64,000 nucleotides of DNA from Escherichia phage pEC-M719-6WT.2, in the sequence record OQ845958.1. One strand, written 5' to 3'. The notes beneath the pieces are model-generated. The model was not told where the DNA came from. It made no database searches and saw only the letters and a list, made by a program, of their open reading frames with translations. Below are positions 20,761 to 31,679 of the stretch, piece after piece (the first letter of the stretch is position 1; every line of letters starts with the position of its first letter). Position numbers and translations under genes: made by a program.

Positions 20761-20808
20761 AGCCCGTAGAACCGATTATGCTTTTATTTATACCACTGTA
20801 TAATGGTT
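20761..20808 (+). promoter_or_regulatory. Palindromic middle-promoter-like cassette (TGCTTTT-N13-TATAAT-GGTTCTACGG), oriented antisense to gene 18
   Basis: 10-nt perfect inverted repeat CCGTAGAACC/GGTTCTACGG flanks a MotA box, TATAAT and an internal TATTTATA. Confidence 0.5.
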
Positions 20809-22858: not shown

Positions 22859-25165
<2,307 letters not shown>

Positions 25166-25169
<4 letters not shown>

Positions 25170-26041
25170 AGTGGTACCCTATTTTTTCTTGGAGCTGGCG
25201 GTGCTGGGTCAACCGGTACAGGAATATCCTGCGAATATGTTTGAACAGATTCACCTTGCCAGTCTTCTTGGTCGACGTCTCGTGGAACGGCTTCCGAGTC
25301 AACAGATTCGAAATTGCCCTCTGGTGCAAGCTCTCTGGAATTTGCAAAGAAGTCAAGATAGATAGTACGGATTTCCCCGGCTACTTCCTTGACCGGTGGA
25401 TATAACCAACCGTTAACTTCGAACATAATGGACCATTCGAGTCTACGACGAGTCATTGCATCACCTTCAATTTGCTCATCCATAGCAATTGACTGCAATA
25501 CGATTCTTATATCACGTTCGAATGTAATTTCATTCGTGTAAAGTTCAGTGATGGTTGTATTAAAATGTGGCTGGAAGTAAGGCATGATTTGTTCGATAAT
25601 CTGGAACATATCATCTTGATGCCTTGTATATATTCCAAGCTCGAAAATCATTTTGACCGGCACAGGAGAATATTGAGATATCTGCTTGCGAGGGTCGTTA
25701 TTAGCAAATCGCGCTTGTGTGTGATTCTGGAGAGCCGTTTTATATTGCCCGTTATACATCAAGTCAACCATATGTAGGTTCATACGGGGCAATACGGTCT
25801 CGATTTTAGCCTTCTGAGCAGCACGTTCTTGTGGTGACATGTCAGGAGTCGGTGTATTCTGAATAGCGGTCCATTTTCCAAGCTGCATCATGAATTTTTC
25901 TTTTGAAGCATAAGAAATAGGGACCTTAATATATTTAAGTCCAGTGTCTTCTCTGGTTCTGGCCACTTGTACATGGGAAAATAAATCGCCCATTAAAACG
26001 ATATAGCGACGCAGAGACGAATTATAAAAATGCCCAAACAA
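25166..26041 (-). CDS. 15: Tail sheath stabiliser / tail completion protein gp15
   Basis: Matches T4 gp15 ([35 protein letters not shown]). Confidence 0.95.
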
Positions 26042-26084
26042 AGTAACCTCCAGGCGCCCAGTTCGGGCGCATTAATAAATGTAT

Positions 26085-26873
26085 TTATTCATCAAAGAAA
26101 CTATCGTCAAAGCTATCCTGTTTTGCCTTCGGAGGAGCCTCAAGTCCACGACCATTCTGCACAAAATATGGTTTAACATATTCAGCTGCTTCTGCGTTAA
26201 TCTCATTGGATTCAGCATAAGGGATATTGCTGATATCTGTAAGACCATCGATATTGTGGATTGGTTGTAAATCGAGCTCACTGAATTCTGGAATATTAAT
26301 ACCTTCATTCCGTTGCAATTCGGGTTTAAGCTCTTCTCCGGAGTAAATGTATTTGCTCGCAGTGATTTTACGGATAGCATTTTGACCTACCTGATAGAAT
26401 GGGTCATAAGGTTGCACCCATGTAATTTCGAACAGGCTGTTATCAAGAGGGAAATAAATCAAATCCCCGGCAATAGGTTCAGTTCCATTGCATTGGTGTT
26501 TAAACAGGTTAGGGTTAATCGATATTGTAATTTCATCGTTCACAGTCATACCGAATTTACTAAAGATAGAACCATCACCCTGATATGCATCGAACGTATC
26601 CAGATATCCAGCAAATTTCCATGCTTTATCAAATTTACTCTGGAGGTCTTCACCAAATAACAAATCCGGTTTAACGAATTGCCTTGGGATATAATAAAGA
26701 GACATTCCGCGCATCTGAATACTTTCAGCAACAATAGCATCTGCTAAAGTCTGGGTATTTTCATGATGCATAAAGTTTACATATTGGTTGAGTATCTCTG
26801 ACGAGTTTGTATTGTCATACCCGGTTCCATCTTCGAGCCGAGCGAATAAGCTTGCATCATAAGAATTACGCAT
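26085..26873 (-). CDS. 14: Neck protein gp14
   Basis: 262 aa (T4 gp14 256 aa); position upstream of gene 15. Confidence 0.8.
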
Positions 26874-27501
26874 AATTCCATAATTTCCATTTTTCGGCTG
26901 TACTTTTACATCTGTAAATGACCGTCGCCGGTGTTATCGAATAATATTCTGCACATTTTCTTCCGGTACAAAATTCTAGGTCGCCGGTAATAATTTTACG
27001 CGCGGCCGGATTTTTATCATCAGAAAAATCTGGATGTCTGTCCTTAAAATCAATCCACATTCGAGCTGTTGATTCTTTACGACGTTTTAATCCTTCTTCT
27101 GACCATTCCCTTTGTTTTGCTGCGTCTGACATTCGTTTTCTTGATTCTGCTGTTCTCTTTTTACCAAAGGCAGGGGAATCTTCTGGACAACTATAACCTT
27201 CTGGTCCGCCTCCCCCTGTTGGATGTAAATTTGCACAATTATCGAAACTTTCTAAAAGCTCACTGACTAGTAAGGCTTCGGCTTCTTTTAATAGGGCAGG
27301 CGATTCAAAAGGTTTAGACCATGTAATGTCGACTAAACATTTCCTTCCGTATTTTTGTTTAGCTCGCTTGACAATAGTACCAGAACCGAAATAACTATCC
27401 GCTTTAGAATCTTCATAATGTGAATGGCGTTTACCGCCATATACCATTATCCCATTAGATGTTTCAAATGTTGATACATAAAGTCTATAGTATGTAGTCA
27501 T
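26866..27501 (-). CDS. Seg-like GIY-YIG homing endonuclease
   Basis: N-terminal GIY-YIG-like YRLY-x11-VYGG; C-terminal tail ([31 protein letters not shown]) aligns with the I-TevI/Seg C-terminal DNA-binding tail; inserted between neck genes 13 and 14. Confidence 0.6.
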
Positions 27502-27504
27502 TAA

Positions 27505-28443
27505 TCACCCAATTAGTATTCCAGCTGGTGCATCCAGCAGGTCAAGTTCTTCGCGGAGACGTTCTTTTTCCATACGAGCTTCTTCAATTAAACGAACACC
27601 ATCAACCGTGGTACCACCTGGCATCATCATCCCCTGGTGTTTAGCCAATACGTTGCCGTTAACTTCCTTAACGAGCGCTGTGGCATAGTCTTTCACCCAA
27701 CGGTTGTTATATGCACCATCTTGAAGTCCAAGGTCCTCACCAGCTCTCATACCGCTTATTCTGCGCGCTGGGTTATCCCACTGTGCGCCTGCATTCCACG
27801 GATTATCACAATCAGCCGAAGCAAAACCATAGCCAGCTGTATTGCCTACCATTGAATCCACACCGTTATATGATTTGGTAAAAACTTCAATTACAATCAC
27901 ATCTCCCTGGCGGAAGTTGCCCATAATTTTAAGTTGTTCGGTATCGTCATTATACCAGTAATCTGGCAGCGGAACCATCAGGTCTTGCATCATTGAACGG
28001 TATTGCATAAGCTGTGTAAAATAACCAAGGTCTGCACCAAAAGCATTTGGACCAAAGCTGTTACATGAGCTACCCATTCCACCGTTAATCCCGGCCAGTC
28101 CCAGAACAAAATCTGTGAACCATGGATATGTAGCTTGACCATCCATCGAAGTTAATGAACCGACGTTAGTACGAATAATCTGCGTTACTGCAAAAATATT
28201 ACGGCCTTTTAAATCGAAAACACCATCGCGAAATTTCTGTTGTGAAACGTCATCATGACCGATATAAAAAGCCTGATAACCTTTGTTATAACCATTATAA
28301 TGATATTCACCATATAATTCTAATGCACGCTGGATGCAATCATAGACCTGTTCGGTCGTAACTTCGATATTCGTAATTGGAGCACCAAGACGTCGAAGGA
28401 TTGCATCTTTTAATTGTTTCGGGTTGTATGATTCAGTTGCCAT
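27505..28443 (-). CDS. 13: Neck protein gp13
   Basis: 312 aa; strong match to T4 gp13 ([36 protein letters not shown]). Confidence 0.95.
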
Positions 28444-28461
28444 ATGTTTTCCTCTTTACTG

Positions 28462-28469
28462 TATTTATA
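28462..28469 (-). promoter_or_regulatory. Late promoter (TATAAATA) for gene 13
   Basis: Plus-strand TATTTATA upstream of the gp13 ATG. Confidence 0.5.
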
Positions 28470-28494
28470 CGAAAAAAGGGCCGAAGCCCTTTTG
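28466..28494 (-). terminator. Rho-independent terminator after wac
   Basis: Minus strand reads AAAGGGCttcgGCCCTTTTTT immediately 3' of wac. Confidence 0.65.
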
Positions 28495-30120
28495 TTATGG
28501 TCCAACAGTCACGAATGTAGACAAAAGAACCCATGCATTATCAACGAGCACATAAGGGAGACCATCAGCTGCAGGAGCGACAGGAGGCCTTTTGGCGAGC
28601 TCTGTTTCTAAGGCTGATACTTTACCTTCTAAAGTAGTTATCTTCGCCTCGGCCGCATCCAGGCGACCAGGGAGCGGAGTTACTGTACCTTCAAGGGTTG
28701 TCACGCGAGTGGTTAATGGTGCAATTTTTGCAGTATCGAGTTTAATTGCATCAATCTCGGTTCTGGTATCGATAATTTCAGTCCAGTTTCCTTGCTTGCG
28801 ACCATATAACTTATTGTCCAATGGTGCGTCGTTCAGCTTGGATGCCATCAGCATATCCAAGTTAATTACAACCGGAAGAACACCACGTTCAGCCACAGTA
28901 GCACCGTTAGGGTTTGTACCATTCATCTGGCTAGTTAAAGTCAAAATAGAGCCTTTCATACCAGTGTTATTTGTACCGATTTCGGCCTGTACATCCTGAA
29001 GGCCTGATGCAGTTTCGTTAGCCAGTGTAGTGGTCGCATTCAACTTATACGTGATAGTGTTTGGCTCCGGAGATTGCTCTGTACCGATTCTCTGAGAAAG
29101 CCATGCAGTGGTACCACGTAAACCAGAGCTTGAATCCTGGCCAACAACAACCTGTAAGCCATTAACATCCGAGCGCAAAGCACTGATTCGACCATTAATT
29201 GTTAATGGTTCCAGAGCGGTGCCGATATCAGCTTCAACCTTAGCAAGTCTTGGTTTGATATCCGCAATATCTGTTTCATTGACCGAAACACGTCCACCAA
29301 GATTTTCAACGCGAGTTGTAATTGCAAGTCCGTTACCAAAACCAATAGCTTCTTGAATGTTGACAATATCTTCGTCAATTTCGACTACTTTGTCGTCAAG
29401 AGTATTCAGTCGAACAAATACAGTCGGTTTACCTGTTGCTAAAGTAGACTCACCTAATTCTTCGCGAATTTTAATTACTTTTATGTTAAGAGAACCAACA
29501 TCAGAATCATGATAGTTATCTTCAAGAGTCTTAATACGAACTCCATGAGCAACAATAGCCGAACTGTTATCGATGATGCGGCGTTTCATGCCTTTTGACG
29601 GATTGCCGATAACCTGGAGACCATTTATATCTTGGTCAACATACTGGCCTAATTCATTTTTAATCCATACGAGGTCATTACGAACTGTGCGATAATATGA
29701 ATCGGTTAACGGGTCATAAACGCCAACATCTTCTTTTAACTTTTTAAGGTCTTCAGATGTTTCGCTTGATAATAATTCGGTATTAAATTGACGTTCATCA
29801 AGGTCAAGAATATCCGTACGGTTTTTTTCAATTTGTTTAACAACTTCCGTGTTAGTTGTTATATTCAAAGCTTCCTGAATATTATTGACGTTATCAATAA
29901 TTTCGTTTATTTTTTCTTTAGATGCATTTGAGTTGTCGTCGAGTGTATCTACGTTTGTTTGAACGCCAACTGCAGCGGCGTTCAAATTACCATCATGACC
30001 ATATTTGGTACTGGCCGCAGTCATACAATCGCCGTTTTGTATCCAACGAATTCTCTGTTGACCTTCGTCTGGAATACCGATGCTATACGGCAGTTCTTTG
30101 AGACTGAGTTTATTAATCAT
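28495..30120 (-). CDS. wac: Fibritin (whisker/collar) with C-terminal foldon
   Basis: Coiled-coil protein ending in a foldon-like GLPYVLVDNAWVLLSTF; start set to internal ATG (MINKLSLKELPY) just after the gp12 stop. Confidence 0.9.
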   Translation of the reverse strand: MINKLSLKELPYSIGIPDEGQQRIRWIQNGDCMTAASTKYGHDGNLNAAAVGVQTNVDTLDDNSNASKEKINEIIDNVNNIQEALNITTNTEVVKQIEKNRTDILDLDERQFNTELLSSETSEDLKKLKEDVGVYDPLTDSYYRTVRNDLVWIKNELGQYVDQDINGLQVIGNPSKGMKRRIIDNSSAIVAHGVRIKTLEDNYHDSDVGSLNIKVIKIREELGESTLATGKPTVFVRLNTLDDKVVEIDEDIVNIQEAIGFGNGLAITTRVENLGGRVSVNETDIADIKPRLAKVEADIGTALEPLTINGRISALRSDVNGLQVVVGQDSSSGLRGTTAWLSQRIGTEQSPEPNTITYKLNATTTLANETASGLQDVQAEIGTNNTGMKGSILTLTSQMNGTNPNGATVAERGVLPVVINLDMLMASKLNDAPLDNKLYGRKQGNWTEIIDTRTEIDAIKLDTAKIAPLTTRVTTLEGTVTPLPGRLDAAEAKITTLEGKVSALETELAKRPPVAPAADGLPYVLVDNAWVLLSTFVTVGP

Positions 30121-30128
30121 TTTGGTCC

Positions 30129-31679
30129 TTAGTAATGAATTTTGATAATATAGTTTAAAGACATATTCCATGGGCGAGTTTCATAACCAATAAGACCTTC
30201 ACGGTTTAACGTACCTAAAGCATCTCTGCCGCCACCGAGTTCAAATCCATCGTTAGTAAAATATGAAGCGTTATCCCAGTCTGCATATTTTCTTGTGCCC
30301 AGATAACCTTGATAAACTGATGCACCAAATGGAGCTTCGTTACGTTGGTATTCACCCCAACCACCCGCGTGTTTATGATATGACATTTGCTGAGCTTGTA
30401 CACCACCGACCCATGAACCATCACAACCAACACCCAAACGGTCTTTGCCATAACCATCTTGACCGCGGTTATTCAGAATATGTCCACCGGTACCAGCACC
30501 ACGAACAAACAAACCACGCATATCAGGAATACCGACGTTGGTCCAATCGCCACCGAAACGAGTTCCAACAGTATTTCGATAGTCAGGGAATTGGTCACCA
30601 TTAACGGTGCCGCCGTGACACATAATCCAGCCAGGAGGAGCACTATCACCTGCGAACATCATCACCGTTCCAACTGGAACCCGTTCAGAAGCATAGCGCT
30701 GTGTAGAAAGTAATTGACCGCCCATATGAGCTGTATTGGAATCAAAATTGCCGGTGGAAATATAATCTAAAGAAAGACTTCCATTAATTCGTTGACCACC
30801 ACGAGTGTTGATTACATCAGCATTCCAAGCCAGTGCACCTGAACCATCACCACCAGGAGCAACCCCCGCTTGAGTAGTTAATCTAACAACGCCACGAATA
30901 TCGGTTGTGGCTCCACGACCATTAAGAGTTGCACCAGTTACCGCAACACCATCAGCACTGTTATTAATTTCTGACTGGTTACCAAGACGAATAATTCCAG
31001 CGCGGTCTTGTGTTGCTGTACGAGCATTTAAACCTGCTGGAGAAATTGCTACACCGTCACCCAGGGTTCCTGCTTGCACTTCAGCATTTGTAGCAATTCG
31101 TACTAAACCAGAAACAGTTTGTGTGGCAGTTGAATAAGTTGGAAGCGCCGCTGTTGCTTTGCCAATTGCCAGAGCAACTTTCAACGGAGACATAGCGGTT
31201 GTATCATCTGTACCAGCTAAAGCTGCATCCTCGGTACTAATACGAAGAACACCCAGGTTATTTTCAGTACCAACACGAACAGTAAAAACATTATCAATTG
31301 TTGCTTTTAATGAAGATGGAACAATAGCTGCATCGGTTACTGTCCCGGCAATTGCTTCGGCATTGGTTGCATAACGGGTAATACCTACATAAGTTTCTGT
31401 AGCTTGCGTAGGAATGTCTAAACGAGCTTTTAAGGTCGCTGGAGTAACTGCAGAGTCTGGACTAATACCATCAATAACTTCTTGTGTGGTGGCTAGCCTG
31501 ATGAGTCCTGCGGTCGTTTCGGATGAGGCTGGGATATATCCATCTAACGCAATTTTATTAAGAGACCCTAAAGCCTCTTGTACGTTGGTAACAGTCGACG
31601 GGAAAGCTGTTCCCGTCGGGTCGAATGTTTTATATTCGGATTTATCGCTAATGTGTTTTAGCGTGTTAGTCGTTGTCAT
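30129..31679 (-). CDS. 12: Short tail fiber protein gp12
   Basis: 516 aa; matches T4 gp12 (QEVIDG, VTPATL, KQQMSYHKHAGG.GEY, NETRPWN.SLNYIIK). Confidence 0.95.
   Translation of the reverse strand: MTTTNTLKHISDKSEYKTFDPTGTAFPSTVTNVQEALGSLNKIALDGYIPASSETTAGLIRLATTQEVIDGISPDSAVTPATLKARLDIPTQATETYVGITRYATNAEAIAGTVTDAAIVPSSLKATIDNVFTVRVGTENNLGVLRISTEDAALAGTDDTTAMSPLKVALAIGKATAALPTYSTATQTVSGLVRIATNAEVQAGTLGDGVAISPAGLNARTATQDRAGIIRLGNQSEINNSADGVAVTGATLNGRGATTDIRGVVRLTTQAGVAPGGDGSGALAWNADVINTRGGQRINGSLSLDYISTGNFDSNTAHMGGQLLSTQRYASERVPVGTVMMFAGDSAPPGWIMCHGGTVNGDQFPDYRNTVGTRFGGDWTNVGIPDMRGLFVRGAGTGGHILNNRGQDGYGKDRLGVGCDGSWVGGVQAQQMSYHKHAGGWGEYQRNEAPFGASVYQGYLGTRKYADWDNASYFTNDGFELGGGRDALGTLNREGLIGYETRPWNMSLNYIIKIHY

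Follow-up and report, generated by a model that had tools for sequence, protein, structure and literature searches.

Escherichia phage pEC-M719-6WT.2 raises the question of what an extra open reading frame (ORF) is doing between the neck genes 13 and 14, and how it came to lie there. In the window analyzed here, a stretch of 64,000 nucleotides from sequence record OQ845958.1, the ORF list gives a 211-amino-acid frame at positions 26866-27501 of the minus strand, with the ATG at 27501 and the TAA at 26866-26868. The frame is called seg here, and it was entered as a Seg-like GIY-YIG homing endonuclease ORF on the basis of the ORF list, a match to the family PHROG 314 and identity to a protein of Shigella phage SP18. 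It is preceded on the same strand by gene 13, the neck or head-tail adaptor gene (27505-28443; 312 aa; PHROG 211, E 7e-42), and followed by gene 14, the neck or head closure gene (26085-26873; 262 aa; Pfam T4_neck-protein, E 2e-102). The order of genes on the minus strand, gp12, wac, 13, the ORF, 14, 15, 16 and 17, is the order found in T4. In T4 itself, the end of gene 13 at 94553 is followed by the start of gene 14 at 94555, so the initial annotation was right that the T4 junction holds no gene.

That annotation had also placed the ORF between genes 13 and 14, without naming a strand. The flanking genes were identified correctly, but the ORF is not simply intergenic, since it overlaps gene 14 by 8 nt. 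The gene 14 ATG (26871-26873) lies inside the last seg codons, and on the other side 3 nt separate the gene 13 stop codon from the seg ATG. The longest ORF for gp15 (window 25166-26041; 291 aa) begins at TTG, and its relatives are annotated at either 876 nt, the length of this ORF, or 828 nt, so that public records do not agree on the start. The longest ORF for wac, the fibritin gene (window 28495-30171; 558 aa), overlaps the end of gene 12 (30129-31679) by 43 nt; the annotated length of wac is approximately 525-558 aa in close relatives and larger in VR26, such that the fibritin 5' end or start is either variable or inconsistently called.

The ORF is a real gene rather than a chance frame, given that PHROG 314, a family named 'homing endonuclease', matches it over its full length (E 1.8e-29) and that an exhaustive HMMER search of a library of 1.84 billion proteins returned 347 relatives at E<=1e-3. 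No further member of the family was found in the 64-kb window. The GC content of seg, 38.7% set against 40.7%, gives no sign of foreign origin. The predicted protein is 100% identical to ADO19516.1, which is annotated as 'segC: homing endonuclease' between gp13 and gp14 of SP18 (GQ981382), and the gene is labelled 'homing endonuclease' or 'putative endonuclease' in Yersinia phage P8, phage RZ and VR26. It is an ordinary element of a known kind, already annotated in identical form in public records. A literature search turned up no description or test of an endonuclease at the 13/14 junction.

The name given to the gene in the SP18 and VR26 records can be rejected. T4 segC is located at 80196-80618, between 5.1 and 5.3, and its product of 140 aa shares only 30% identity with the seg protein over 126 residues, with no counterpart of residues 127-211. 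As judged from these comparisons, the 'segC' label is a misnomer produced by similarity transfer. Other features of the public records deserve comment. In SP18 (GQ981382; 1686-2372), gp14 is annotated from a downstream start as a protein of 229 aa, leaving a gap of 94 nt, and the full ORF of 262 aa overlaps seg as it does in the window. In VR26 (KP007362; 2467-3048), seg is annotated as 193 aa, and the full 211-aa ORF, beginning MATYY, is intact. The start codons of SP18 gp14 and VR26 seg are therefore likely to be mis-annotated. In Escherichia phage vB_EcoM_JQD51 (PV204681; 1073-4261), the product names appear to be displaced by one gene, such that gp13 is called 'endonuclease', the endonuclease 'head closure protein' and gp14 'tail sheath stabilization protein'.

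Is the encoded protein an endonuclease? The N-terminal GIY-YIG catalytic domain is assigned to approximately residues 1-100 (27202-27501, minus strand) and includes Y8, Y21, G23, E75 and N91. The GIY-YIG-like pattern YRLY-x11-VYGG that was noticed initially was found at residues 5-8 and 20-23. In an alignment of 44 relatives of seg (alignment A2), the residues Y8, Y21, G23, Y37, G39, G41, E75, N91 and G96 are invariant, and these take in the GIY and YIG tyrosines of the GIY-YIG superfamily together with its YIG glycine, catalytic glutamate and asparagine. The seg protein gives no match at E<=1 to the Pfam models GIY-YIG (PF01541) or SegE_GIY-YIG (PF19835), nor do its homologues of 52-60% identity; among the 44 remote homologues, 7 match PF19835, 2 match PF01541 and 13 match I-TevI_DNA-bd. 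Neither phmmer nor a profile hmmsearch matched seg to any of the PDB sequences. The grounds for the GIY-YIG assignment are therefore the fold, the conserved residues and transitive homology. The AlphaFold model derived from the 44-sequence alignment is confident (mean pLDDT 91.5) and predicts the GIY-YIG alpha/beta fold, with strands at residues 4-14 and 17-27 that carry RLY (Y8) and VYGG (Y21, G23), respectively.

The remainder of the protein resembles the linker and DNA-binding parts of I-TevI. A NUMOD3-like linker motif was found at residues 109-125 (27127-27177, minus strand) with an E-value of 0.01 to Pfam NUMOD3, which is below the curated cut-off; 10 of the 44 homologues match NUMOD3, with a best E-value of 6e-14. 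Thus the Pfam search suggested in the initial annotation for both domains yielded a sub-threshold match for NUMOD3 and no direct match for GIY-YIG. The C-terminal region, approximately residues 152-211 (26869-27048, minus strand), is I-TevI-like and assigned as a DNA-binding helix-turn-helix. The pattern described earlier for this tail is present, with one slip of spacing, given that GDLEF reads G...F and not G..F. The proposed kinship with the I-TevI/Seg DNA-binding tail was borne out by four comparisons: BLASTP aligned the C-terminal 60 residues with residues 178-240 of I-TevI (E 0.006), the best Foldseek match of the model was 1I3J, the I-TevI DNA-binding domain (probability 0.99), close homologues of seg match PF20987 (I-TevI_DNA-bd), and hhalign of the family profile against I-TevI was collinear over 185 columns (E 1.7e-4, probability 49%). 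The hhalign comparison pairs Y21 with Y17, E75 with E75 and N91 with N90 of I-TevI. For the region of I-TevI R27, seg has K24-R25 after YGG and R46 in the first helix, where the alignments to I-TevI are gapped and unreliable.

I-TevI is encoded by an intron, and one homologue of seg, that of phage G5211, is labelled as a group I intron-encoded endonuclease. An Rfam scan of 25800-28700 matched no family, including no group I intron, so seg is taken to be free-standing. The intron-encoded reading was rejected for seg on three counts: no intron model was found, the coding sequences of genes 13 and 14 directly adjoin seg, and the NCBIfam model for group I intron endonucleases, TIGR01453, matches residues 107-208 below threshold, at 17.9 bits against a cut-off of 56. 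The gene is a stand-alone ORF between conserved genes and does not lie in an intron.

The gene appears to be expressed with its neighbors. A T4-type late promoter, TATAAATA, is located at 28462-28469 on the minus strand, upstream of gene 13, and it is the sole such motif able to drive a 13-seg-14 transcript. No late-promoter motif with one mismatch or fewer was found on the minus strand between 26800 and 27700, so none lies directly upstream of seg. That the only nearby late promoter is upstream of gene 13 implies that genes 13, seg and 14 are co-transcribed. In the whole window, TATAAATA occurs 22 times, compared with 5.4 expected from shuffles (for example at 28462-28469, 22859-22866 and 20785-20792); almost every copy lies on the strand that encodes the late genes, which fits a T4-type late transcription program. 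Scans for sigma-70-like promoters and terminators were at chance level. Hairpins that sequester the ribosome-binding site are known for some T4 endonuclease genes. RNA folding at the starts of seg and gene 14 showed nothing beyond shuffled controls (z of -1.26 and +0.42), which gives no evidence of such hairpins at either gene. Therefore, neither RNA structure nor a dedicated promoter gives a sign of regulated seg expression.

A structural or assembly protein of the neck is favored only by the location of seg within the operon of late structural genes and by its co-transcription with its two neighbors. The seg protein has no similarity to any structural family, its fold is that of a nuclease joined to a DNA-binding domain, and T4, like most close relatives, builds a normal neck without it. 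A structural role is accordingly given almost no credence. The initial annotation had considered that its endonuclease reading would fall if there were no GIY-YIG domain match and a structural ORF were conserved here in all relatives; instead, the gene is absent from approximately 21 related phages.

The distribution of seg among close relatives bears on how it arrived. The window belongs to the genus Gaprivervirus, and the region is 94-99% identical to phages of that genus. For 32 close records, defined as those at least 90% identical over the 13-14 region, seg is present in 8, which correspond to 5 distinct phages (SP18, P8, RZ, TH40 and VR26). In the other 24 records, or approximately 21 phages, it is cleanly absent, with matches that fall in two pieces and skip seg. 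Comparison of the 13-14 junction in related phages, as had been proposed, thus revealed the gene in a minority and its precise absence in the others.

The junction was resolved with an alignment of 11 genomes (alignment A1), of which 6, including the window, carry seg and 5 do not. The DNA missing from the seg-less relatives corresponds to 26864-27494 of the window on the minus strand, a gap of 631 bp (columns 950-1580 of A1), with an additional 4-bp indel at 27505-27508. In the seg-less genomes the gene 13 stop codon overlaps the gene 14 start codon (TAATG), and the sequence reads ...GGGCTAATGGCTAC|TTATGACGCA...; the junction is also given as TAATGGCTAC|TTATGA. VR26 has an upstream flank of the seg-less type, and its seg begins with ATGGCTACATAT (MATYY), compared with MATYD at the start of seg-less gene 14. 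The endonuclease therefore starts at what was once the start codon of gene 14 and takes over its first codons. At its 3' end (...TGGAATTATGCGTAA), seg supplies a new start for gene 14, such that the N-terminus of gp14 is MRNSYDAS in the window and MATYDAR in seg-less relatives. The insertion thus lies inside the first codons of gene 14, and seg is served by what were the ribosome-binding site and start codon of that gene. Given that seg takes the gene 14 start but supplies a replacement, the essential neck operon stays intact.

Sequence linked to the presence of seg extends into both flanks. At the 5' end of gene 14, a tract at 26784-26856 on the minus strand (columns 1588-1660 of A1) holds 12 positions with a fixed difference between seg-bearing and seg-less genomes. 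All 12 are within approximately 80 bp downstream of the insert, in the first approximately 90 nt of gene 14, and no other fixed difference was found among the 242 variable flank columns of A1. This 73-bp tract may reflect co-conversion or target immunity. A second tract, 27504-27525 on the minus strand (columns 919-940), covers the 3' end of gene 13 and is linked to seg in 5 of the 6 seg-bearing genomes, and VR26 keeps the seg-less type. The last approximately 25 bp of gene 13 differ, such that the C-terminus of gp13 is APAGILIG in the window and four other carriers and APTPILVG otherwise. In ten columns of A1, VR26 groups with all of the seg-less genomes against the other five carriers; nine of these columns fall within 919-940, and the tenth is column 1603, in the 5' end of gene 14.

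The same five seg-bearing genomes share a near-identical block on otherwise diverged backbones. The block spans 26743-27549 of the window on the minus strand (columns 895-1701 of A1) and holds 7 variable columns, with dense variation outside it. We infer that it is the recently transferred unit, consisting of seg with approximately 48 bp upstream and approximately 123 bp downstream. Between the window and SP18, seg differs at 2 of 636 nt (dS 0.015), whereas dS reaches 0.35 in gene 13 and 0.23 in gene 14 (Fisher p 2e-11). A low dS for seg against a high dS for the flanks is repeated for P8 (YenP8), RZ and TH40. Overall, the dS of seg is 15-24 times lower than that of its flanks. A recent transfer would be expected to leave such a pattern of a near-identical gene with short linked flanks on diverged backbones. 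Thus the view of the initial annotation that the gene is free-standing and moves horizontally has held up, as most close relatives lack it and its divergence is far below that of the flanks. General recombination could also have contributed to the mosaic pattern.

VR26 carries a second allele, with 47 nucleotide differences from the window allele and a dS of 0.36. The dN/dS between the two alleles is 0.049, compared with 0.01-0.06 for the neck genes, which shows that seg is under purifying selection and is not decaying. These comparisons indicate a functional gene of recent spread. They also bear on the possibility that seg is the remnant of a homing endonuclease gene that is now inactive or in decay and is a mere passenger in the neck operon. 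A remnant would account for the missing Pfam GIY-YIG match; many homing endonuclease genes of phages are defunct, such as that for T4 I-TevIII according to its annotation, and loss of seg would be difficult given that the start codon of gene 14 is inside it. Decay is hard to reconcile with an ORF that is intact in 6 of 6 carriers, with invariant catalytic Tyr, Tyr, Glu and Asn residues, with a dN/dS of this size over that dS, or with near-identity on diverged backbones, which implies recent spread. We consider a remnant improbable.

Selection of this kind could also act on a domesticated DNA-binding or nuclease protein that is kept for a benefit to the phage, such as exclusion of competitors, recombination or amplification of the neck region, or control of gene 14 translation. 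Purifying selection on seg is as strong as on its essential neighbors, and gene 14 translation now begins inside seg; in addition, SegB is reported to aid immune evasion via the amplification of anti-defence loci (PMC13096335). A beneficial gene of this type would not be expected to be missing in approximately 80% of close relatives and in the majority of phages of four other genera, and the co-transferred flanks are a classic signature of homing. Domestication is judged improbable too, and by a shade more so than decay. The preferred reading, which we hold with considerable confidence, is that seg is a functional, free-standing, Seg-type homing endonuclease with a GIY-YIG domain, a NUMOD3-like linker and an I-TevI-like helix-turn-helix; by analogy with SegF, SegG and SegB, it would spread by homing.

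By that analogy, the seg enzyme would cut the endonuclease-free 13/14 region of a related phage during mixed infection. Repair of the double-strand break would then transfer seg to the recipient along with approximately 50-120 bp of sequence from either side. Indirect support for such cutting and preferential inheritance comes from the flanking tracts linked to seg and from its low dS. The linked substitutions where gene 13 ends and gene 14 begins may shield the carrier from self-cleavage, or may simply have been co-converted; the seg-linked tract could be hitch-hiking donor sequence instead of immunity mutations.

Homologues of seg with 48-60% identity were found in four other groups, also between genes 13 and 14 and overlapping the start of gene 14; they usually take over the start codon of gene 14 and supply a new one. 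The first group is annotated as Tequatrovirus with a Mosigvirus-like neck region, exemplified by F2, and has the gene in 13 of approximately 154 close records. The Dhakavirus example is MX01, of which two records are found among approximately 49 close records, and vB_EcoM_005 encodes the protein too. The gene is present in 3 of approximately 58 close records in Krischvirus, exemplified by G5211, and in 16 of approximately 114 in Slopekvirus, where it is found in phT4A and Klebsiella phages. Within each genus, the nearest seg-less relative differs from the carrier in the initial 50-100 nt of gene 14, with no differences further on. The left junction falls after codon 3-4 of gene 14 in Gaprivervirus and F2, after codon 2 in Slopekvirus, directly after the ATG in Dhakavirus, and in an intergenic spacer in Krischvirus.

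Two simple accounts of these homologues were considered and rejected. Strict vertical co-divergence with the host genus does not hold, given that in Dhakavirus the seg protein is 58% identical to that of the window, compared with 89% for gp13 and 75% for gp14. In F2, Krischvirus and Slopekvirus, the endonuclease has diverged roughly in step with gp13 and gp14. Tracking in some genera and not in Dhakavirus suggests a history that mixes long residence with transfers. A single shared target at the Pro codon of gp14 ILNPYVNF, altered in every seg-bearing genome, was also discarded, since the seg-less Mosigvirus relative already has the codon of the seg-bearing type and the proposal fails as well in Dhakavirus and Krischvirus. 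The neck region of F2 (MN864145) is of interest apart from its endonuclease. Although F2 is classified as Tequatrovirus, its 13-14 region is 98.6% identical to that of Mosigvirus KAW3E185 (MK373782) and approximately 79% identical, among the matches listed, to AR1-like tequatroviruses, which points to mosaicism of the neck module across genera.

Krischvirus KFS-EC (NC_055757; 1287-2102) encodes a different Seg-like endonuclease of 271 aa (YP_010097173.1) between genes 13 and 14. Its domains are SegE_GIY-YIG, NUMOD3 and I-TevI_DNA-bd, and it shares only 22% identity with the seg protein; its gene is inserted upstream of an intergenic spacer, such that gene 14 keeps its own start. By sequence and placement it is a separate lineage at the same junction. 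Recurrence of this kind suggests that the 13/14 junction is a hotspot for endonucleases. A broader scenario, which we advance tentatively and regard as rather doubtful, is that the junction has long been a hotspot within Straboviridae, occupied in at least five genera by a single dedicated Seg lineage. This lineage would persist by capturing the ribosome-binding site and start codon of gene 14, rendering expression of gp14 dependent on seg in an 'addiction by translational coupling', and the unrelated KFS-EC lineage would compete with it for the site.

The practical value of these observations is limited, and the current understanding of homing endonucleases is unchanged. A misleading name, 'segC', is corrected, and the misplaced starts of SP18 gene 14 and VR26 seg are flagged. 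For specialists, the locus offers a clean natural test case of intronless homing into a late structural operon, with useful material in the form of two alleles, one of which has a recombinant upstream flank, and a delimited candidate target or immunity tract of 73 bp. The presence of related endonucleases at one junction in five genera opens target-site evolution and the dependence of gene 14 translation to direct test. Beyond the corrected naming, what is added is the delimitation of a transferred unit and of a candidate target tract, and the recognition of the 13/14 junction as a recurrent endonuclease site across genera.

The closest known systems are the free-standing endonucleases of T4. 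In pairwise BLASTP, the N-terminal 100-125 or so residues of seg match T4 SegC (E 4e-10), SegB (6e-8), SegE (6e-8) and SegD (2e-7) with 26-31% identity. Like seg, these four proteins have a homologous GIY-YIG domain that includes the Y-x-GSG and K-Y-G motifs, and the T4 Segs are likewise free-standing between conserved genes and sporadic among relatives. Unlike seg, they are at other loci, and seg is the orthologue of none of them; its tail is nearer to that of I-TevI, and the T4 Segs reach the Pfam GIY-YIG models, whereas seg and its closest relatives do not. With I-TevI, seg shares a GIY-YIG catalytic domain, a long linker and a C-terminal helix-turn-helix, and I-TevI is the best structural match for both domains. 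However, I-TevI (PDB 1LN0, 1I3J and 1T2T) is encoded within the T4 td group I intron, which seg is not, its linker is longer than that of seg, and similarity in sequence is marginal by the hhalign comparison. SegG has no detectable similarity to the seg protein. The movement of SegF and SegG has been described as 'intronless homing' (Belle et al. 2002 and Liu et al. 2003, as cited in PMC2993671). In this mode of spread, to which SegB also belongs, the allele of a neighboring essential gene that lacks the endonuclease is cut, the break is repaired and flanking markers are co-converted. For SegF, SegG and SegB (PMC2330249 for SegB), cleavage sites and marker exclusion have been measured, whereas the spread of seg is proposed from comparative sequence. 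The linked flanks of 50-120 bp that accompany seg are the footprint expected from co-conversion of the SegF, SegG and SegB type.
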